A stretch of 64,000 nt of DNA from Macrostomum lignano (taxonomy: Eukaryota). This document shows, one piece after another, positions 1 to 27,568 of the stretch. A model generated the notes under the pieces. It did no database searches. It was not told where the DNA came from and saw nothing but the letters and a program-made list of their open reading frames with translations. The DNA lies in contig NIVC01000269.1 in assembly GCA_002269645.1 (NCBI GenBank), positions 1 to 64,000 on the forward strand, given 5' to 3'. Position numbers and translations under genes: made by a program. Position 1 is the first letter of the stretch; each line of letters opens with the position of its first letter.

Positions 1-357
1 AGCCGATTGGCTCTAAAGAAAGGTGGGGAAACCGTGTGCCACGGCGCCTTCACACCTGAAAACAATTCCTTCGTAAGAGAATACTTGCACTACCTGAAAA
101 GCTGTCAATCTGCAAGCCACACAACTCGTCCCGTGGATCCCCTACCAGCTCTTCTCCAACAACACACGGTGTTTGCATTCGATCTCACACCCGAGGGAGC
201 GGCTCTGTGGTACGGACAGAAGGAGGGCAACCTGCGGCTGGAGATTCGCTTCCAACAGGCTCTGAATGAAGCGGTGTCCCTGATTGCTATGTGCCTGTAT
301 GACTCGCTGATTGAGGTCACCAAGCACCGAGAGCTTTTGCTGGACTATTCATCTTAA
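1..357 (+). CDS. Maverick major capsid protein, C-terminal part (5' end outside window)
   Basis: Frame 1 is open from base 1. HTVFAFDLTP...GNLRLEIRFQQAL...DSLIEVTKHRELLLDY matches the Polinton MCP C-terminal pattern (FAFDLTP, LRLE.RF, LIEI..R....DY). Confidence 0.85.
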   Translation, partial: SRLALKKGGETVCHGAFTPENNSFVREYLHYLKSCQSASHTTRPVDPLPALLQQHTVFAFDLTPEGAALWYGQKEGNLRLEIRFQQALNEAVSLIAMCLYDSLIEVTKHRELLLDYSS

Positions 358-362
358 TTGAC

Positions 363-875
363 ATGGATGCAATTCAACTACTTAATCTCGCCAGAAAATT
401 TTTGCCTTACCAAAAATTTCTCATAGTTACTTTACATTTGCGCTATAAAAATTCTCTGCCCTTGAATGTAAAAAGAAAATTTAGATCATCAATTTCCTTT
501 GAAAACAAGTTTGTTTTTGTCCTACTTCAGCACAATGGCTCATTTGGTCACTGGGTGGTGTGCTATGTTGGGCAAGGAAATCGCATTGAGTTGTTCAACT
601 CCCTCGGCTGGGAACCTGAAATTTTATCTTTGGTTTATAATTTGTTTCGAGAGATTAAAACAACTGGCTTTTGGCTCCGAAGCAATATAAACAGAGTTCA
701 ATGTGCTAACTCTAATAAATGCGGAATGTTTTGCATCTATTTTGCTTATCAAAAGTTTCTGTTCAATCGGTCATTTGAGGGGATTTTGAAGCATTTGCAT
801 GCTAATGAAAAAAATCATTTGAATGATAGAATCTTACAGAGGTTTGAAGCCAACTTAAGAAAAAGATGTCCGTGA
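363..875 (+). CDS. Adenain-like cysteine protease (capsid maturation)
   Basis: GHWV (His), IELFNSLG and VQ...SNKCGMFC (oxyanion Gln and catalytic Cys) in adenain order; lies directly after the MCP gene. Confidence 0.9.
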   Translation: MDAIQLLNLARKFLPYQKFLIVTLHLRYKNSLPLNVKRKFRSSISFENKFVFVLLQHNGSFGHWVVCYVGQGNRIELFNSLGWEPEILSLVYNLFREIKTTGFWLRSNINRVQCANSNKCGMFCIYFAYQKFLFNRSFEGILKHLHANEKNHLNDRILQRFEANLRKRCP

Positions 876-1545
876 TTTCTAATATTTATGCATTAAACAT
901 GGGAGAAAAGCAAGTTTGCTACGATATCCGCCTCAGGCAGGGAAGCTGCATGATTGTCTGCGGGCCCACCAATGCAGGAAAAACAACCTTTGTCGAACAC
1001 CTGATCCAGTACAGAGACGTCATGTTTGATGTGAAGCCTGGCAGAGTTCTGTGGTACTATGGGATCTCACAGGCAGGCCATGCAGAACTGAGCAGCCTAG
1101 GTGTGCAGCTGCGCCAGGGATTTCCCACCAACATCGAGGCAGCACTTAGGCCCAATGACCTGGTTGTTTTCGATGACTTAATAGAGGAAACTTCAAACTC
1201 TGCTTCAATGCGAAATTTTTTCACAGGAATCGCACATCACTTGCCGTGCTTTTTGGTGATGCTGACTCAGAATATATTTTTCAAGGGAAAAGAGTCGCGA
1301 ACAATGAGCTTGAATGTAATGTACTTAGCTATCTTGAAAAACCCCGAGACCAGCTGCAGATTGCAGCACTGGGCAGGCAGTGCTTTACAGAGAAGCCCGG
1401 CTTTCTGCTGTCAGTGTTCAAGCACGTGACCGCGCAGGGCAGGGGAGCCTACCTGTTCCTAGACTTTCACCCATCAACTCCCGATGAGCTGCGAGTGCGG
1501 GCCAGAATTCTGCCCAACCAGCGACCCCATCTTGTATTTGCTTAA
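866..1545 (+). CDS. FtsK/A32-like DNA packaging ATPase, split by a one-base frameshift near 1341-1346
   Basis: Walker A GPTNAGKT, Walker B LVVFDD, then HH, TQN and RTMSLN motifs in ORF 866-1429. The expected continuation (KNP)RDQLQIAALGRQ...YLFLDFHP..DELRVR is in the -1 frame (ORF 1246-1545). Confidence 0.88.
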
Positions 1546-1586
1546 GAAAGTGAAGCTTGTTTTTATCAGCTATTGTTTTCATCGCA

Positions 1587-1925
1587 ATGGAAGTGCTTGA
1601 TTCATATGCAAGTCTTTTTGCGGTTCTTGCGTCACCTAAATATACCGTGCGCTTCAAGCGGCTGTTGATAAAAAATTGTCCAAAAGAAGTGCGTTATTTT
1701 CTTGTCGAGGCCTGCCATAATCTCTTACAAAACAATCTATCGTTTTCGCTCGATGAAAAAGCTGTTCTTGCAAAGTCAAAAGAGATAATTCGAAAAATTA
1801 CTCACAAAAGAAGAAAGACAGACTTGTTGAAGGCTGGCTTCATCAAAATACTCCCGATTCTGCTTAAGCTGGTAAAGAAGAAGAAGCAAAATGAACAAAT
1901 TTTCAGAAATGGTTCTGATTCCTAA
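1587..1925 (+). CDS. Conserved small basic Polinton/Maverick protein of unknown function
   Basis: ATG at 1587. KRLLIKNC...LVEACHNLLQNN...KEIIRKI...GFIKILPILL resembles the small basic ORF usually found after the ATPase in Mavericks (pattern recall). Confidence 0.65.
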   Translation: MEVLDSYASLFAVLASPKYTVRFKRLLIKNCPKEVRYFLVEACHNLLQNNLSFSLDEKAVLAKSKEIIRKITHKRRKTDLLKAGFIKILPILLKLVKKKKQNEQIFRNGSDS

Positions 1926-2583
1926 AGCAGAGTATGAGATGTTGATGCAGAATTTGAAGCCAAATGAGACTACCACTGAAGCTGACTTGAAGCAGGCTCA
2001 GAAGAAATGCGATGACATCTTGTATGCCGAGGATTGTCCAGAAGATGTGAAAACCGCCATGTACCAAAGTGCAATGCAAAGTTTGCTGGCCAAGCGCAAG
2101 CACGCTGGAAAAGAAGGAGCACGCAATACTGAAGCCAAGTTGATGAAAACAGAGACACCCCAGATAAGCACCTGGGAAGAGAAGATCAGCAAGTCGGTGC
2201 CACAGAAATTCAAAACCAGGGCTCGCAGTCTGTGGACGATCCTGTCCACCAATCCAGAGCTGATTCGAGTTTGTGAAAACGGGGAGGTGGAAATCGCAGG
2301 CACGTCAATCCCTTCCTCAAACATACTGGACTTGATTCAGCACACAGTGAGGGATTCGCCATGTGAGCGTGAACCAGTTGGGTGGAACGAGTTCATCGAT
2401 TTTCTGCAGCAGAAAAAGCTTAATGTTCCGCTTTCCGCTGTTGGTAAATCAGTTAAGAAGAAAATGGCAACCAGCAGAGGGGGTGAACTGGAGAAAGAAC
2501 AGGAGAGTCTAGTCAAGGGGTACGGGAGCAACACAGCCTGGCTGAAATTGCCTGCCAGAAAAGTATATAAGAAGGTGGACTGA
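1891..2583 (+). CDS. Conserved Polinton/Maverick protein of unknown function
   Basis: EMVLIP...DDIL...DVKTAMYQ and ENGEVEIAGTSIPSSNILDLI...PVGWNEFIDFL...NVPLSAVG match a widespread Maverick ORF pattern; start overlaps the previous ORF. Confidence 0.75.
   Translation: MNKFSEMVLIPKAEYEMLMQNLKPNETTTEADLKQAQKKCDDILYAEDCPEDVKTAMYQSAMQSLLAKRKHAGKEGARNTEAKLMKTETPQISTWEEKISKSVPQKFKTRARSLWTILSTNPELIRVCENGEVEIAGTSIPSSNILDLIQHTVRDSPCEREPVGWNEFIDFLQQKKLNVPLSAVGKSVKKKMATSRGGELEKEQESLVKGYGSNTAWLKLPARKVYKKVD
2564..2571 (+). promoter_or_regulatory. Candidate TATA box (TATATAAG)
   Basis: About 45 nt upstream of the ATG at 2613. Confidence 0.4.
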
Positions 2584-2612: not shown

Positions 2613-3464
2613 ATGAACTACATTGACTTCCAAGGATTCCCGTGCAACAGCACAAGCAAAAAATTTGTTGTGAAGGAGTTGGCAGTTGTTCAAATCAGAG
2701 CGGGGAGCTACCACATTGCTCACCATGTGTACGCACCTCCGTATCCATGGGAGAGAGTCTCACCTGACATGCGAGTTTACTACAGACAGCTATCTAAGAG
2801 TCTGCACCAGTTTAAGTGGAATGATGGAACCCGTCCGTACATGGAACTGGCGGAAGACATTCTGAGCATTGCCAGTGGTCCGATCTGGTCAAATGGGGAA
2901 AGGAAGTCGATTTTTCTGACTGAGCTGCTTGGAAGACAGGTTTATAACCTAGAAGATTTGGGAGCACCCTCGACTGAAGATTCAGATACTGGCTGTGCAG
3001 TGAGAAATTCGTTGCTGCACTACAGTTGGCTTAAGCCAAAGTTCTGCATCAACTTAAGAAGCGAGCAGTGTCCGTGGCACACGAGCAGTAAAGTTGGCAG
3101 AAGCAGATTTGGTGAAGAAGTTGACGATCGAAATGAGCCCACCAGCTACAGCCCTAAGAGTGACCAATCTGGTTGGCGGAGTAGATCTGAGACTGGATGG
3201 TGGCAGGGGCGCTCAGCTGCCTCTACGGGAACTGGCTCTCAGCATGGCTCATGTGATCTACCGGCCCGTCTGGCCCCGGGTGCTCATCAAGCGGATGCGG
3301 ATTCCCAGAGTGACTCTCCTACTCTACCCTACTGGGCAACTGAGCATCTGCGGTGCCAAGACCCACGCAGACGCCAAAAGGGCTGCCCGTCGCTTCGTGG
3401 CTATGCTGCATCGGAGAGTGCCGGCTCAACTGCTGCCTCATCAAACAATTTGTGTTCGAATTAA
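2613..3464 (+). CDS. DEDD/DnaQ-like exonuclease-fold accessory protein (recognisable part is about the first 150 aa); C-terminal extension overlaps the TBP-like ORF
   Basis: YIDFQGF...FVVKELAV...PPYPWE...LHQFKWNDG..PY...GERKSIFL...VYNLEDLGAP...CAVRN resembles a Polinton accessory family. TATATAAG lies about 45 nt upstream. Confidence 0.55.
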   Translation: MNYIDFQGFPCNSTSKKFVVKELAVVQIRAGSYHIAHHVYAPPYPWERVSPDMRVYYRQLSKSLHQFKWNDGTRPYMELAEDILSIASGPIWSNGERKSIFLTELLGRQVYNLEDLGAPSTEDSDTGCAVRNSLLHYSWLKPKFCINLRSEQCPWHTSSKVGRSRFGEEVDDRNEPTSYSPKSDQSGWRSRSETGWWQGRSAASTGTGSQHGSCDLPARLAPGAHQADADSQSDSPTLPYWATEHLRCQDPRRRQKGCPSLRGYAASESAGSTAASSNNLCSN

Positions 3465-3705
3465 AACTATTACTGCTCATGGACAGCTCCCAGTTCATTC
3501 CGCACTTTCCTTATTAATGTTAAAATCAATTATCCCAAACGCCGAATATGAACCAGAATCCTTTTCTGCTTTAATTTTCAATTTAAACTTTTGTAAATGT
3601 CTGCTTTTTCACAGCGGCTCTTTTGTTCTCAGTGGAGCTCGGTCCTTGAATCAGTTGCATACCGATAGCATGCGTCTACTCAATGTAGTTCTTTCCATTG
3701 AATAA
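3133..3705 (+). CDS. Divergent TATA-box binding protein (TBP) homolog, 190 aa from the first ATG
   Basis: Both TBP repeats align by eye: VTNLVGGVDL (QNIVSTVNL), RMRIPRVTLLLYPTGQLSICGAKT ([24 protein letters not shown]), AKRAARRF (SRLAARKY), AEYEPESFSALIF (SSYEPELFPGLIY), CLLFHSGSFVLSGAR (LLIFVSGKVVLTGAK). Tandem AATAAA at 3701-3712. Confidence 0.88.
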   Translation: MSPPATALRVTNLVGGVDLRLDGGRGAQLPLRELALSMAHVIYRPVWPRVLIKRMRIPRVTLLLYPTGQLSICGAKTHADAKRAARRFVAMLHRRVPAQLLPHQTICVRIKTITAHGQLPVHSALSLLMLKSIIPNAEYEPESFSALIFNLNFCKCLLFHSGSFVLSGARSLNQLHTDSMRLLNVVLSIE

Positions 3706-3712
3706 AAATAAA
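3701..3712 (+). terminator. Tandem polyadenylation signals (AATAAA x2)
   Basis: Overlaps the TBP-like stop codon, at the convergence with pPolB. Confidence 0.55.
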
Positions 3713-4287: not shown

Positions 4288-7200
4288 CTAGACCAGTCGG
4301 ATGCGCTTCAGCTGATCGTGGGATGCGGGCGTCAGCGCATAGTGTCCGTAGGGCAGGCTTCGATTACTGCTAAGCCACACTCGCTTATCCTCCCACACCG
4401 ATAGGCTTCTTTTCTCCATGACCGACGTGAAGATTTCGTGTTTCTTGGAAACAATCGCTGTCATGGCAACCATCTGCTCTTGCTTGGACTCGAACGCGTC
4501 GACATAGTTCGCATGCGAAATTTGCTGTCTTACTACTGACTGCTTCACGCCTTTGGCAGTTTTCTTGATCTTTGCACTCGAATTCTCGGCAGGGAGAAAC
4601 GAATAAAGTTTTGGACGCAAAAGAATCCACTCCTGGTAAATTCCACCAGCAGATTCATCTTTAACGCAGCCCAGCTTTCCTTTTAACTCTTCAGAGAAAT
4701 GCGGATGGTCTCGAGAATAGTTGGATGTGTCAAGTATTTTTTCCTCTCTAAGCTTCGGGATTACCTCCGATGTTAAATCATGATTCTTGAAAGCTAGAAA
4801 AAATGAGTCAGTATCACCTCCGCAAAGCATCATGTCTCTGGAACCGTCTGAATGACAGAACAGCGGTCGGAGCCTGTCATATAGTAGGCTGTACATGGCC
4901 ATCTTAGAGAGATCGAGAACTGCCTGGCCAACGAAAATGGCCTTGTCAAGCGTGACTTTATCTTTTTTGAGCTGAAAAATGCTCAACGACTCATTGATAA
5001 TCGAGAATGCGGCACAGTTTGGTCGAGAGGCGCAAGTTTCTGCTTGAGTCTGGTTAGTGCAAATTCGAACATCGCATCTTTTTCGAACGTTCTCCATAGT
5101 TTTTCCAAAGAGAGAATTGTTTTTCAATTTGTAAAAATCCTTAGCAAACTCGGAAGTTGCCAAAGCTCTTTTTTCATTGTTGCTGGCAATGTACGGCGCG
5201 AAAATATTTTCCTGCTTGAACGAAATCATTTTTTTGACGCACTTGATCCGCATTCCGTGTTGCAGGTAAAATCTTAAAACGGTGCTGTGAACTACGTAAG
5301 AATCCTTGTCGGTACAGGTGAGTAGAAGCTTCTCCGTTGCTTGAAACTTAGCTTCAGCATTGCCAGTTCGCTGTTCAGCAATCTCTTTCCATAGTTCGGC
5401 CATGTACGGCGAGAATTGATCTGGCTGTGGTTTTGATTTTTCAGGTGCAAACGGTAACTCCTGAGTCGAATCGTGAATCTCAGCTGGGTATTCTAGATCG
5501 AGTTGAACAAGGTAGGCGATCTCGGCTTCTGGATTGAGTGACAGAAACCGATTGGAGTCCCAGAACTGGATTTCCTGTTCCGGTACCCACCTGAATTCCC
5601 TGCATGGAAGCGGAAGCGACAGGGCAAAGCCATACAAGTTGTTCATATCGATCGGCATGAGGCTTACACTCTCTTGCTGATCATCATAACCTGGCAAGCT
5701 AGGATTATTACCTTTGACGCAATGCACATTAATGAAGGACATGCCTCCTCGTATTCCCTTCTCAAACAGATGATACATGTCAGCATCAGTCAGCTGCTCT
5801 AGAACCACTCCAGTCGACTTTAGAGCTGAGTCGTAAGACAAACCAGGAGTAGTAAAGTAGTGTACCGGATCCAATCCGTCCTCTTTCAGACTGGCCTGTC
5901 GGAATGTCTCGAAAATGTCAGCCAGCTGCCTTACATCCATTTCAAGATAGGCGAGCATATAATCCTTCAAACTTTTGCATTGAAATGCCGCCCATGCCGC
6001 TCTTGCTCTATTGTAGTCGTCGTCGGAAATTCCCCGATCGGAAAGTCGATTAAAAAAAGCATCTTTAGGCGGCAAAACCGACTGCTCGAGAATCTCAAAT
6101 CCTGTGAGGTAATCATATGGGAAAATCCCTTTTTTTCGAAGTAGCTCTCTTGAAAGATGTGGTCTTGACTCAAGCATTTGCATTGTCAGCTTGCATTCAG
6201 CTTCGGGAAGATTAGCAAACAAATTGGACAAACTTCCCTTCAAAAAGCAGAGCGAGTCGATGAACTGAATTGTAAACATGATTGGCACAACTTTTCCGTT
6301 CTTTACGTAACTTGCAACAGGGAATTCCGCCCTTAGTGACAAGTATCGCTCGGATGATTGCGGAACAACACTAAGTTTCCAATTTTTCATGCTCCCAAGC
6401 GCAGTGGAAAGTAGAAGATGAAGGTCGTAGCCGCCTAAGTTGTGAAAAACCAGGGGCAGAAACCGGCGTCGGAGCTGTGCTCGCAGGTTGCATTCTTGAC
6501 ATGCTGCACCTTTGTACTGTCCATTTAAATGATCGTGGTCAAAATGTTTATCTGTAGAACTTTTAAAGTTCTTCTTGCAGTAGTGACATACCTCAGCAGA
6601 ATTGAAATCATCCATGACGGTCGCGGATGATCGGTCAGCCGGCTGGTGGCTATGCTTCTGGTTCCAGTGAAATATATCCTGAGCCAGGCTTTCAAGAGAT
6701 TTGAGAAAACCAAGGATACACTCATCAGGGTCCGCATTGCAAAAGACCTTGTACATGTCTCCTTCTGGCCTAAGCGGAGGTCCTGTCATGCCTTCACGAG
6801 GCACTGCAAGAAAAGCTGCTGCACATGGTTCATGCTTTGAGATCAGGTTAGCAGGGTCTGTGTTCGCTCGCAAAATGGCTTCCAGGTCGGCATAGGCAAC
6901 GAATGGTGGACTGACAGTGTTTTGACAGTTTCGGAACTTTATTTCATTCTGTCCTGGAACTGGAAGCGTTTCTTTGACAGGATTTTCTGCAGTAATGCTG
7001 CATTCGTTCCTGTGCTCTTGAAGCCTCTCGTTGCTATAAAATGATGTTAAACATTTCGTGCACCACTTCCTCATGGCGGGACCATTACGACTGTTCATTA
7101 ACCTGTCAAAATTAGTAATTGCACACCAGTGCTCCGATCCGTAGCTGTCTTTAACTAGCAAAAGCATGAGGTGTCTTCGGTCATCTGACTCATGCTTGCG

Positions 7201-7746
7201 GCGACGGAGAAGAGTCACACTGCCCTGCTGCCAAGAGAACGCAGAAATGCAAATTCCTGGATTGTTAGACTCGACGCGATCGATATCAGCGACACTCACT
7301 GGCATGGAGATTTCTGCAAAGTCCAGCTCACGCAACCATTCATCGTAAGAGGATATTCTGTTGGGCGATTTCTGAACTTTCGGATCGGCGCTGTGCAGTG
7401 CAGCGAGACAGGCGTACAGGAAACAGTCTTTGCCTGTGCTCGGTGGATTGATAACAGCCTTTTTGTTCTTCAAACTGGCAGGAAGATTGAATCTAACGGC
7501 TCTGCCCTGGCGAAATCGAATTGGATTGTACCTGGCAAGGTTGATGTCTAGAAAATTAATTTGTTTAATTGTCCAGCCACTGCCGTTCGTATTAATCATA
7601 CTACAGATCCTCTCCAACTCCTGCTCCTGCTCAATCAACCAGTTGTTTAAACGGCCTGCTTCACCACCTAGGTCTAGGGCCTGCATTTTACAGCTTATCC
7701 ATCTGTCCTCTTCGGCAAGCATCTCCCCATCTCTTATTCGGACCAT
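4288..7746 (-). CDS. polB: Protein-primed family B DNA polymerase (pPolB) with an endonuclease VII-like Zn-finger insertion
   Basis: ExoI YADLE, ExoII FHNLGGYD, KGIFPYDY, ExoIII YLEMD, motif A DMNNLYG, motif B KLKNNSLFGK, motif C DTDS, KGV. CHYC...DHDHLNGQYKGAACQECNL insertion. Frame stays open 68 codons upstream of the ATG (to 7950). Confidence 0.96.
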   Translation of the reverse strand: MVRIRDGEMLAEEDRWISCKMQALDLGGEAGRLNNWLIEQEQELERICSMINTNGSGWTIKQINFLDINLARYNPIRFRQGRAVRFNLPASLKNKKAVINPPSTGKDCFLYACLAALHSADPKVQKSPNRISSYDEWLRELDFAEISMPVSVADIDRVESNNPGICISAFSWQQGSVTLLRRRKHESDDRRHLMLLLVKDSYGSEHWCAITNFDRLMNSRNGPAMRKWCTKCLTSFYSNERLQEHRNECSITAENPVKETLPVPGQNEIKFRNCQNTVSPPFVAYADLEAILRANTDPANLISKHEPCAAAFLAVPREGMTGPPLRPEGDMYKVFCNADPDECILGFLKSLESLAQDIFHWNQKHSHQPADRSSATVMDDFNSAEVCHYCKKNFKSSTDKHFDHDHLNGQYKGAACQECNLRAQLRRRFLPLVFHNLGGYDLHLLLSTALGSMKNWKLSVVPQSSERYLSLRAEFPVASYVKNGKVVPIMFTIQFIDSLCFLKGSLSNLFANLPEAECKLTMQMLESRPHLSRELLRKKGIFPYDYLTGFEILEQSVLPPKDAFFNRLSDRGISDDDYNRARAAWAAFQCKSLKDYMLAYLEMDVRQLADIFETFRQASLKEDGLDPVHYFTTPGLSYDSALKSTGVVLEQLTDADMYHLFEKGIRGGMSFINVHCVKGNNPSLPGYDDQQESVSLMPIDMNNLYGFALSLPLPCREFRWVPEQEIQFWDSNRFLSLNPEAEIAYLVQLDLEYPAEIHDSTQELPFAPEKSKPQPDQFSPYMAELWKEIAEQRTGNAEAKFQATEKLLLTCTDKDSYVVHSTVLRFYLQHGMRIKCVKKMISFKQENIFAPYIASNNEKRALATSEFAKDFYKLKNNSLFGKTMENVRKRCDVRICTNQTQAETCASRPNCAAFSIINESLSIFQLKKDKVTLDKAIFVGQAVLDLSKMAMYSLLYDRLRPLFCHSDGSRDMMLCGGDTDSFFLAFKNHDLTSEVIPKLREEKILDTSNYSRDHPHFSEELKGKLGCVKDESAGGIYQEWILLRPKLYSFLPAENSSAKIKKTAKGVKQSVVRQQISHANYVDAFESKQEQMVAMTAIVSKKHEIFTSVMEKRSLSVWEDKRVWLSSNRSLPYGHYALTPASHDQLKRIRLV

Positions 7747-8169
7747 TCGAATATTCGCCTTTAGCTGAACTTTGTAATGATGTCTTGAAATTCTTTGCTG
7801 AACTGCCTCAATAATTTTGTCTCCAGCTTGGACAAAAAATTCTGACGGAAGCGTGTCTGGGTGACTCGATCTGAGCCTCAGTATTTCCAGTGATTGATCA
7901 TAGGCTTGGGCAACTCTGCTGAAGCTGACTGTTGAACCTGGTTTGTGGTTTTAGGATAATATTTTTGTTTTTTGCTGCCTATAGTTTCAAATATCAAAGA
8001 TACTAAACTAAACGTCTGTACCCAAGCATACATGTACAACCCTACCGGTATAAAGTCTTTTATCTCCCCTTCTCCCATTCTTTGGACTAAAATTTTAGAC
8101 TGCATAATATACATCGCATTGATAAGAAAATTTTTAAGTAAGTTGAAAAGGATAAATAAAGGCACTTAC

Positions 8170-8566
8170 CTTGGTGTGCATCAGTCACCGACTCGCTGTT
8201 GGCTGCTGACTCGCTGCTGGCTGCTGACTCGCTGCTGGCTGCTGACTCGCTGCTGGCTGCTGACTCGCTGCTGGCTGCTGACTCGCTGCTGGCTGCTGAC
8301 TCGCTGCTGGCTGCCGACTCGCTGCTGGCTGCCGACTCGCTGCTGGCTGCCGACTCGCTGCTGGCTGCTGACTCGCTGCTGACGTCATGGTCCACCCAAG
8401 GGTGGTCATACTCGATCCACGAGTGGTCATCCTCCATCCACGAGTGGCCATTCTCCATCCATGAGTGGTCATTCTCCATCCATGAGTGGTCATTCTCCAT
8501 CCATGAGTGGTCATTCTCCATCCATGAGTGGTCATTCTCCTGCTCCATCCAGGAGTGCTCAACCAT
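8170..8566 (-). CDS. Repeat-rich ORF or candidate internal exon of a spliced pPolB transcript: (ENDHSWM)n, (ESAASS)n
   Basis: 21-bp and 18-bp in-frame tandem units. Strong donor AAG|GTAAGT at 8170/8169 and a pyrimidine-rich acceptor ending at 8558. Confidence 0.45.
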
Positions 8567-9449: not shown

Positions 9450-10868
9450 TCACAGCGGCACAATTCTAATACGATTTTCGAAAATCGTTACCTCGTACCC
9501 AGCCCCGCCGACAGGAGGCAGAAAGAAGGCAACTCCAGCTGGCACGGGTGGAGTTTCGGATTGAGAAGCTGGAATTGTAGAGGCTGCAGCTGGGGCGGCT
9601 GGAGCAGCTGGGGCAGCCAGAGCAGCTGGGGCGGCCAGAGCAGCTGGGGCGGCTGGAGCAGCTGGGGCGGCCAGAGCAGCTGGGGCGGCTGGAGCAGCTG
9701 GGGCAGCCAGAGCAGCTGGGGCGGCCAGAGCAGCTGGGGCGGCCAGAGCAGCTGGGGCGGCCAGAGCAGCTGGGGCGGCCAGAGCAGCTGGGGCGGCTGG
9801 AGCAGCTGGGGCGGCCAGAGCAGCTGGGGCGGCCAGAGCAGCTGGGGCGGCCAGAGCAGCTGGGGCGGACAGAGCAGCTGGGGCGGACAGAGCAGCTGGG
9901 GCGGCCAGAGCAGCTGGGGCGGCCAGAGCAGCTGGGGCGGCTGGAGCAGCTGGGGCGGCCAGAGCAGCTGGGGCGGCTGGAGCAGCTGGGGCGGCCAGAG
10001 CAGCTGGGGCGGCCAGAGCAGCTGGGGCAGCCAGAGCAGCTGGGGCGGCCAGAGCAGCTGGGGCGGCCAGAGCAGCTGGGGCGGCTGGAGCTGCAGGTGG
10101 CACAATTGCATTATGCGACTCATTGTCGCTGCCCTCCTCTTCTAGGATTTCCATTTCGTGGTCGTCTTCAATTAGATGAAGTTGTTTTCCAGCAATCACC
10201 GGAACCGAAGAGACAGGTTGCTGCTGCTGCTGCTGCTGACCAGCGTTGAATTCCCTGAGGAACTGATCCAGGACATCTTCCTCTATGAAGTTTATGACAG
10301 CAGCAGCCTCGACTCCAGCAGCCTCGACTCCAGCAGCCTCGACTCCAGCGGCCTCGACTCCAGCAGCCTCGACTCCAGCAGCCTCGACTCCAGCAGCCTC
10401 GACTCCAGCGGCCTCGACTCCAGCAGCCTCGACTCCAGCAGCCTCGACTCCAGCAGACAGCTCAACTTCAAATTCTGCAGCTGCTGAAGACCCGCTTGGC
10501 CTCATCCTCTTCAATGTAGAGTCAATTACTTGACTCAAGTGAGCTGATAGCAGACTCCTGCTGGCTCCCTTTTTCTGCTGGCTCTTCTTTTCTCTCTCGT
10601 TGCTCTTTTTGATGGCGCGGATTACTTTCCAGCGGTTACTTTCTTGCTTTTTCTTGTCATCGCTGACGATCTTGTGTCCTCGATGATATGCTGGAATTTT
10701 TCCCTCCTGCAGAGCTTCGACGGTGCCGCACTGGTCGCATGCCAACCAGCATGAGACCAGACAGTTCTCATTCTCGTGGTGTCTTGGGGACACGCCTCCA
10801 AGCAGGCACACTTCGCAGCTTATACAGACCTCATAGAGGTCTCTATGACAACTTTTAAAAGTTTTCAT
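9450..10868 (-). CDS. Maverick accessory protein: Cys/His-rich N-terminus, basic patch, (VEAAG)n and (APAALA)n repeats
   Basis: 472-aa ORF with a non-repetitive N-terminus containing CxxC pairs. 15-bp and 18-bp repeat units keep the frame. TATATAAG about 100 nt upstream; possible donor GAG|GTAACG at 9492/9491. Confidence 0.65.
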   Translation of the reverse strand: MKTFKSCHRDLYEVCISCEVCLLGGVSPRHHENENCLVSCWLACDQCGTVEALQEGKIPAYHRGHKIVSDDKKKQESNRWKVIRAIKKSNEREKKSQQKKGASRSLLSAHLSQVIDSTLKRMRPSGSSAAAEFEVELSAGVEAAGVEAAGVEAAGVEAAGVEAAGVEAAGVEAAGVEAAGVEAAGVEAAAVINFIEEDVLDQFLREFNAGQQQQQQQPVSSVPVIAGKQLHLIEDDHEMEILEEEGSDNESHNAIVPPAAPAAPAALAAPAALAAPAALAAPAALAAPAALAAPAAPAAPAALAAPAAPAAPAALAAPAALAAPAALSAPAALSAPAALAAPAALAAPAALAAPAAPAAPAALAAPAALAAPAALAAPAALAAPAALAAPAAPAAPAALAAPAAPAAPAALAAPAALAAPAAPAAPAAASTIPASQSETPPVPAGVAFFLPPVGGAGYEVTIFENRIRIVPL

Positions 10869-10977: not shown

Positions 10978-11348
10978 GTAATTTGTACATGCATGCCCTC
11001 TCCTTATCATATCGTATATGAACATCCAGCCATGCTCAGGTAATAATTACTTTACCGTTATAGAGGCCACTGGCTGTAATTAGTGTATCCCCCCCGTCCC
11101 CTTATCCAGGTAAGCAACACCAGCCGTCCTCTGTGCAGTTGTAAAACTTTATAACCTTACCCTAACACAGAGCACAGAGATTGGCCACCCCTCTTATCTC
11201 TGCAATGTTTAGCCGTTCCCAATGCACAGAGATAGGATCCTCTCCGCAGTGTATTTTTCCTATATCCTTTTTGCCGCCTATCTCGCCAGCGCTAGTGCGG
11301 CAGTATCATGAATCGCCTCTATCTCCGCAGTGCTTAGCCGTCCCCAAT

Positions 11349-11990
11349 GCACAGAGATAGAGCTCATATCTCTGCAGTGCTTAGCCGTCCCCAATGCACA
11401 GAGATAGAGCTCATATCTCTGCAGTGCTTAGCCGTCCCCAATGCACAGAGATAGAGCTCATATCTCTGCAGTGCTTAGCCGTCCCCAATGCACAGAGATA
11501 GAGCTCATATCTCTGCAGTGCTTAGCCGTCCCCAATGCACAGAGATAGAGCTCATATCTCTGCAGTGCTTAGCCGTCCCCAATGCACAGAGATAGAGCTC
11601 ATATCTCTGCAGTGCTTAGCCGTCCCCAATGCACAGAGATAGAGCTCATATCTCTGCAGTGCTTAGCCGTCCCCAATGCACAGAGATAGAGCTCATATCT
11701 CTGCAGTGCTTAGCCGTCCCCAATGCACAGAGATAGAGCTCATATCTCTGCAGTGCTTAGCCGTCCCCAATGCACAGAGATAGAGCTCATATCTCTGCAG
11801 TGCTTAGCCGTCCCCAATGCACAGAGATAGAGCTCATATCTCTGCAGTGCTTAGCCGTCCCCAATGCACAGAGATAGAGCTCATATCTCTGCAGTGCTTA
11901 GCCGTCCCCAATGCACAGAGATAGGGCTCATATCTCTGCAGTGCTTAGCCGTCCCCAATGCACAGAGATAGGGCTCATATCTCCGCAGTG
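11349..11990. repeat. 47-bp tandem array (about 14 copies) in the Maverick terminal region
   Basis: Unit gcacagagatagagctcatatctctgcagtgcttagccgtccccaat contains the inverted repeat cagagata/tatctctg around GAGCTC. A degenerate copy of the terminal ~110 bp occurs at about 11213-11320. Confidence 0.95.
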
Positions 11991-12294
11991 TATTTTTCCC
12001 TATACATTTGCATTGCCGCCTATCTCGCCAGTGCTAGTGCGGCAGTATCATAATTCGCCCTACTACTTAACGGCTTTAAATTCACTGGACCTTTGTTGGC
12101 TTGTCCGGTCTCCGCTAACGGTAGGCGCGAGCCATAGACAATTAATTGTCACGTGCTGCAACCGCTGATTCATTCATTGTTTTTCTGTTCGACAATCCTT
12201 ACAAACAATGTATTGTTCTAATTCTGCATAAAATGTGCAGCACATCTCACTTCTGCAAAACTTTTCTTTCGTTGTTTCCAATCTCTAGGCTTCT

Positions 12295-12755: not shown

Positions 12756-27568
<14,813 letters not shown>

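Follow-up and report, generated by a model that had tools for sequence, protein, structure and literature searches.

A TBP-fold protein encoded by Maverick/Polinton elements of Macrostomum lignano and a TATA-like box upstream of their genes

A close described counterpart of the gene reported here is ORF24 of KSHV, a beta/gamma-herpesvirus protein that combines a viral TBP fold with a non-canonical TATT late box upstream of structural genes and with host RNA polymerase II (PMC12529657, PMC4893493 and PMC7498053). A viral TBP with a private box is thus known from herpesviruses, and the general kind of system is not new. However, ORF24 is a large protein that operates in a six-factor complex and binds polymerase II directly (PMC12529657), whereas the Maverick protein is a bare core of 190 aa. 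TBP-like proteins of NCLDVs, with 7-20% identity between the BFVD matches and the Maverick protein, likewise represent the TBP fold in dsDNA viruses; almost all of these viruses encode a TFIIB as well and in many cases have lost the acidic pair, and in Mavericks the situation is reversed (PMC7221094). A precedent in a midsize linear dsDNA element of the Polinton class is provided by the MELD viruses with adintovirus-like PolB, for which the legend of Fig. 5 in Starrett et al. 2021 labels a TBP (PMC8502044; preprint 10.1101/697771), and the gene is therefore not unprecedented in this virus class. In that paper the TBP is named in a figure only, within a section that deals with non-animal datasets, and the accessible part of PMC8502044 says nothing of its carrier, spread, residues, promoters or function; the one supplement searched gave no TBP match.

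The novelty for Mavericks suggested by the first-pass annotation of this DNA was thus overstated as regards the gene itself. No literature was found on the spread of TBP in animal Mavericks, on the box or on its function, with the proviso that figures, bioRxiv supplements, Repbase entries or subscription papers may name the gene. In the literature searched, TBP and Polinton occurred together in the Starrett papers and otherwise only in three giant-virus or metagenome papers. No TBP or TATA match was present in the text and supplement of PMC11161782, in the supplement of PMC10748475 or in the text of 10.64898/2026.06.19.733378. According to PMC8097293, nobody had at that time seen virions of animal Mavericks that are integrated in a genome.

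The window analysed is a stretch of 64,000 nucleotides of the M. lignano contig NIVC01000269.1, and the TBP gene was confirmed from its gene neighbourhood to sit inside a Maverick/Polinton element, as had been proposed at first pass. Since the window starts inside the element, the integrase was taken from a sister copy (L054), where it carries a chromodomain and is accompanied by a PC4-like gene and by presumed minor capsid and core genes. The one complete copy checked (C530) spans 16.7 kb and has AGTAGT-type termini and a 6-bp target duplication. In the window the element begins with the 3' part of the presumed major capsid gene (1-357, plus strand), cut by the contig start and assigned by size, position and homology among Mavericks, with no Pfam match. 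It is followed by the adenovirus-type cysteine protease (363-875, plus strand; Pfam), the packaging P-loop ATPase (866-1545, plus strand; Pfam), with a frame break near 1340 that belongs either to this copy or to its assembly, two conserved Maverick ORFs of 112 aa and 230 aa without a Pfam family (1587-2583, plus strand), a third ORF (2613-3464, plus strand), the TBP gene, the convergent pPolB (4288-7746, minus strand; Pfam), two ORFs rich in repeats, and the right terminal inverted repeat (11320-12067), which contains 47-bp units in tandem, position 12067 being the end of the element. The presumed major and minor capsid ORFs, of 427 aa and 272 aa, occupy the expected places and are conserved across families, without a Pfam match. 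Single-base indels relative to read contigs were seen in the presumed capsid gene (100-170) and in the ATPase gene (about 1340), for which decay or assembly error presumably accounts; the ATPase break is common to many copies in the same genome.

The ORF at 2613-3464 consists of a conserved N-terminal part of 155 aa, which we take to be exonuclease-like, and an unselected tail that shares the first 332 nt of the TBP gene in another frame, an overlap missed at first pass. In Atlas this ORF falls into unnamed arthropod clusters, Maelstrom being a weak lead only. Dual coding of the 332-nt overlap was considered and rejected, since the tail frame has a dN/dS of 0.87-5.0 in 10/10 pairs, while the TBP frame is constrained.

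Beyond pPolB, contigs from two of six runs guessed to be RNA, belonging to two studies, join across 232 nt at 7936-8169, where the ends read GT-AG on the minus strand. This joint would make the repeat-rich ORF at 8087-8566 (minus strand) an in-frame 5' exon of pPolB; in an unlabelled high-depth run a contig crosses the same stretch unjoined. Altogether 20 of 24 sequencing runs contain the stretch, and none is recorded as RNA. The ORF at 9450-10868 (minus strand, 472 aa) has a Cys-rich N-terminus and a basic stretch, together with repeats that are acidic or consist of Gln or Ala-Pro, and looks like a regulator; it lies behind a TATATAAG box and gave no family match above the cut-off. In the host DNA to the right of the element a short ORF (13445-13804, plus strand) is presumably like the N-terminus of a mariner-type transposase.

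The ORF at 3133-3705 (plus strand), located between the capsid-module genes and pPolB as first described, encodes 190 aa without an internal stop and without an N-terminal tail, and sequence and fold-model comparisons confirmed its product as a TBP-family protein with a two-lobed saddle fold. The Pfam TBP family (PF00352) matches it in two stretches with an E-value of 7.9e-25 and a score of 87 bits against a curated cut-off of 22.9, so that both halves of the saddle, already aligned at first pass, were recovered. In a PDB sequence search, all 35 matches with E < 1e-9 were TBPs, the best being an archaeal TBP (E 2e-18). The AlphaFold2 model, based on a 34-row alignment that included host TBP rows, has a mean pLDDT of 94.6, presents the strand-helix order of both TBP lobes with the saddle intact, and was superimposed by Foldseek on solved TBP structures with TM 0.80-0.84 and an rmsd of about 2 Å for most. 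The fold predicted from the single sequence was poor (pLDDT 37) and was left out of use. The best viral match to the model in BFVD had an E-value of 1.7e-11 and TM 0.71. The identity to the host's own TBP is 29%, and a protein record labelled Macrostomum lignano is 99% identical to the Maverick protein. Two AATAAA poly(A)-type signals are found at the stop codon (3701-3712, plus strand) in 30/30 of the best own-genome loci.

Residues are given below in yeast numbering, obtained as host TBP plus 23 from spans of equal length; their roles follow PMC12529657, PMC1636458 and PMC7221094. The protein keeps the DNA-face positions N69, V71, T112, L114, F190, L205 and F207 in family A, together with R105, R107, E186 and E188, and the positions of R105, R107, R137 and K138 remain basic in this family. 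Two-lobed architecture and the residues N69, V71, L114, F190, F207, E186 and E188 are held in common with cellular TBP, TRF2/TBPL1 and archaeal TBP. Changes comprise E93I, R98W, F99P, A100R, F116Y followed by Pro, V122S, R141A, N159T, V161T, P191S and V208H, of which F99P, F116Y, N159T, V161T, P191S and V208H, along with the absent tail and a shortening by two residues near V203, set the Maverick protein apart from cellular TBP. A V203K change seen by eye was dropped, as the alignment has a two-residue gap at that site. In the protein's own numbering, the C-lobe retains both intercalating phenylalanines (F144, yeast F190; F159, yeast F207), and the N-lobe retains its asparagine (N12, N69) and has Pro48 at F99, next to Trp47 at R98, and Tyr65 at F116; the second asparagine is replaced by Thr112 (N159). 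These assignments agree with the first-pass reading of both repeats. Two of the four intercalating phenylalanines and one of the two base-reading asparagines are thus kept, leaving the canonical TBP set incomplete. F99P, the Tyr-Pro pair at 116-117 and the hydroxyl side chain at position 159 are seen again in family B, by realignment, and in families C-F, where Asn69 is lost too; given these losses, DNA binding may be weakened.

An acidic pair of TBP contacts TFIIB (PMC7221094), and its counterparts, E140 and E142 (yeast E186 and E188) in the C-lobe stirrup, are kept. The pair reads E-x-E in families A and B and in L095, an unrelated Maverick described below, and D-x-E in families C-F, and is therefore present in 7/7 lineages. 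In ORF24 of KSHV the reverse pattern is found: it keeps all four phenylalanines and the proline and is without the TFIIB acids, whereas the family-A protein has lost the N-lobe phenylalanine pair and keeps the acids (PMC12529657).

A search of the M. lignano genome with the Maverick TBP gave 152 matches from the 150 of 231 candidates that were scored, and about 99 rows among the 150 matches listed were near-full-length and stop-free, counted by eye. These are not insertion counts, because the host TBP and the TRF2-like gene each occur three times in the assembly. Among the 30 best loci 25 copies are identical in protein and in DNA, which points to recent spread. As for the suggestion that the gene might track with Maverick copies, each of the six Maverick families sampled from M. 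lignano (A-F) was found to carry it. Protein identity ranges over 74-100% in family A; that of family B, with the gene order of A, is 37-38%. A search with the ATPase yielded the four further families C-F, with a pPolB only 28-32% identical to that of the window, and in 8/8 of their loci examined a far more divergent TBP-like gene precedes pPolB. HHalign (96.6%) and a PDB profile search with TBP as best match (E 2.6e-9) identified it; compared with Pfam TBP, one of five sequences was over the cut-off, three were just under and one had no match.

In families C-F the TBP-like frame begins directly after a pyrimidine-rich AG (L161:100-120, L168:6240-6270, L170:6585-6610, L173:535-555), which suggests a spliced gene, and in family D it continues in frame into a deoxynucleoside kinase. 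Gene order in these families differs from A/B, and genes for a phospholipase-A2-like protein, dUTPase and deoxynucleoside kinase are added (L169:9378-9815, L170:23-601, L170:5290-6015). A PC4-like protein (PF02229) is encoded in A and B (L054:5281-6057, plus strand; L034:5792-6433, minus strand); in A its gene lies at the left end, and in B it comes after TBP and on the opposite strand.

Beyond this genome, 80 of 580 relatives from a metagenome scan were kept, and Maverick genes accompanied one of the 80, L095, in which TBP sits between ATPase and integrase. IMG/VR scanned with the family-A TBP and ATPase alignments gave nothing, and other short-TBP alignments gave 15 loci there, in none of which a Maverick gene was detected by tblastn; cluster look-ups returned no genomic context for 10 short TBP-like relatives. 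Archaeal-type TBP genes occur on IMG/VR contigs L066 (7076-7672), L070, L072-L074, L077 and L080; L066 also has genes for terminase, portal and capsid and resembles a tailed virus.

The final tree included 46 of the 80 rows plus five from families C-F; the rows left out comprised L078, a viral sequence in the wrong frame, and several that were long or redundant. Maverick TBPs and seven context-less short relatives clustered together (96/85), separately from the cellular TBP and TRF2 proteins. The AU test rejected a grouping of A/B with host TBP (p 0.003) or host TRF2 (p 0.025), comparisons limited by long branches, the attraction of which is possible; a clade uniting A/B with the L095 group and leaving out C-F was not rejected (p 0.18). 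The simplest reading of these relationships is that the Maverick TBP is an old capture. The captured factor envisaged at first pass is thereby retained, its capture probably being old.

The TBP gene is under purifying selection. Across family-A pairs dN/dS is 0.06-0.45 in the N-terminal half of the frame (28/28) and 0.07-0.39 in the C-terminal half (21/28, the unsaturated ones); in family F it is 0.17, with 0.21 for the protease as comparison. Family-B pairs gave 0.26-1.22 on few changes, the copies being too close to judge. Between close subfamilies dS is about 0.09 in the N-half and exceeds 2 in the C-half, which marks the gene as a recombination mosaic. Breakpoints between subfamilies lie inside the gene at 3300-3640; the structural module and N-lobe are common to the subfamilies, and the C-lobe and pPolB arm differ and travel together.

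A TATA-like box was found upstream of many element genes. CTTAAGAA lies within the preceding ORF, 80 nt ahead of the TBP start (3053-3060, plus strand), and is present in 30/30 of the best own-genome loci, and the motif scan located the same box before the packaging ATPase gene (854-861, plus strand) and the 112-aa ORF (1541-1548, plus strand), and a TATAAGAA box, within TATATAAG, before ORF 2613 (2566-2573, plus strand). TATATAAG-type boxes precede the PC4-like gene, ORF 2613 and ORF 9450-10868, and the protease and the 230-aa ORF have no box in A and B. With an upstream window of -165 to -10 that was fixed after matches had been seen (distances 12 to 165 nt), the 8-mer NNTAAGNA precedes 8/10 module genes in A1, 5/7 in A2 and 32/51 genes in families outside its definition. 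In the non-A families 38 of 63 coding-strand matches fall in upstream windows spanning 21% of the sequence (p 1e-11), compared with 2/11 on the opposite strand; the positional enrichment is weak in B alone (p 0.05) and in L095 alone (p 0.22). Enrichment over whole loci was not found (13 vs 12.6 expected; 8 vs 11.2 expected). Six of seven Leu-Arg pairs written TTAAGA lie just upstream of the next gene (67 pairs examined; expected share 0.8-2.4%); judged by codon choice, the box codons within coding sequence are held more constant than the protein requires. Four Maverick contigs that gave no TBP-like match, all of them partial and three from one family, had the box before 1/9, 0/4, 0/4 and 0/4 module ORFs.

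The box CTTAAGAA before the family-A TBP gene is in codon register with the canonical TATAAAAG before that of family B, which gives the register C1-T2-T3-A4-A5-G6-A7-A8. The TAAG core is invariant in all families. Boxes of A, B and L095 read mostly YNTAAGAA, with A at position 7 in 24/25, and those of C-F read TATAAG, mostly TATAAGCA, with C at position 7 in 16/27. Base 1 is C in 16/25 boxes of lineages without Pro191 and in 0/27 of lineages with it. Pro191 is reported to favour T at the first base (PMC1636458, PMC12529657), and C at base 1 only in its absence is as that role would predict; the contrast may represent one evolutionary event.

Taken together, the element TBP is probably a minimal virus-specific promoter factor that would bind the NNTAAGNA box and recruit host TFIIB and polymerase II. 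The box would be the TATA-position element ahead of the capsid, packaging and integrase genes, read by the element protein and not by host TBP; once bound there, the protein would contact host TFIIB and bring in RNA polymerase II, and the box-bearing genes would be 'late'. Loss of Pro191 may relax the requirement for T at the first base so that C is accepted, and the N-lobe, rebuilt by F99P and by F116Y followed by Pro, may fit the invariant G at box position 6. The family-A TBP gene lies behind its own box, and a first round by another factor would hence be needed; TATATAAG-type boxes may serve host TBP first, an order that is a guess. The redirection of host Pol II suggested at first pass, a predicted role, gains support from the TFIIB-contact acids, purifying selection and the positioned box.

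Of the features known from herpesviruses, a non-canonical box, NNTAAGNA, is positionally enriched before the presumed structural genes; Pfam families of the six herpesvirus-type activators were not found among the element ORFs scanned, some of which have no family. All 15 TFIIB-family (PF00382) matches of the M. lignano genome are confined to six contigs, none of which holds a Maverick copy examined here, and the two loci inspected resemble host genes of the TFIIB and Brf1 types that are split by introns. This PF00382 search, which a very divergent cyclin fold could escape, detected no TFIIB gene in the Mavericks studied.

More tentatively, one TBP captured long ago by a branch of animal Mavericks may have served as a single-protein late-gene switch acting through host TFIIB, with promoter codes co-evolving family by family, Pro191 with base 1 and the rebuilt N-lobe with bases 6-7, and with lobes shuffled by recombination between subfamilies.

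By the structural rules in PMC13566119, CTTAAGAA fits ordinary TBP, and by those of PMC13566119 and PMC1636458 both CTTAAGAA and TATAAGCA are compatible with it, so that host TBP could read the boxes. The altered specificity raised at first pass is accordingly plausible and not required. It is conceivable on these grounds, if rather unlikely, that host TBP or TFIID reads the box and that the element protein is a competitor or decoy, at promoters or by soaking up TFIIB or TBP regulators, which would dampen host or early element transcription. The acidic TFIIB stirrup retained alongside the loss of half of the DNA-kinking residues, and the still basic positions of R105, R107, R137 and K138 in family A, would suit such a role, but neither conserved DNA-face residues nor co-variation with the box would be required of a decoy that acts purely as a protein, and the partial Mavericks without the TBP gene are also without the box.

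Late genes of baculoviruses start at a TAAG motif. That the TAAG core of the Maverick box is likewise an initiator-type signal, for another factor or a helper virus, with the TBP-like gene in a separate role, is improbable: the core is invariant across all families and some boxes lie 12-35 nt before the first ATG, which is short for a TATA element, with spacing that differs among copies, but several of the short distances were measured to first ATGs that are perhaps not true starts, the family-A box is in register with the canonical TATAAAAG of family B, and the C-F boxes are TATAAG.

Both TFIIB-contact acids in every lineage and the intact two-lobe saddle of the model speak against the quite improbable use of the protein as a nucleic-acid-binding module outside initiation, for example in replication or packaging of element DNA, to which the neighbouring pPolB, PC4-like or nucleoside kinase gene and the Tyr at L5.1 might point; at this position, taken as F116/F207, single TBP lobes of bacteria that serve other purposes typically have Tyr (PMC7221094). 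A recent, decaying and functionless capture of host TBP or TRF2, which the 29% identity to host TBP, the lost key residues and the indels in neighbouring genes of the window copy might suggest, can practically be dismissed in view of purifying selection, the roughly 99 near-full-length stop-free rows, the presence in six families and the AU rejection of a grouping with host TBP or TRF2.

With a single factor of 190 aa and a predicted 8-bp target, the open question of how Mavericks switch on their capsid genes becomes experimentally testable. The family-specific differences in residues and boxes are natural tests of DNA reading by TBP. If the protein is indeed a promoter factor of this kind, it would represent a third viral TBP design, a bare core working with host TFIIB, beside those of herpesviruses and giant viruses. 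If the more tentative reading of an ancient late-gene switch with co-evolving promoter codes is also true, the families would constitute a natural set of orthogonal TBP-promoter pairs and would offer a first handle on the timing of virion genes in Mavericks.
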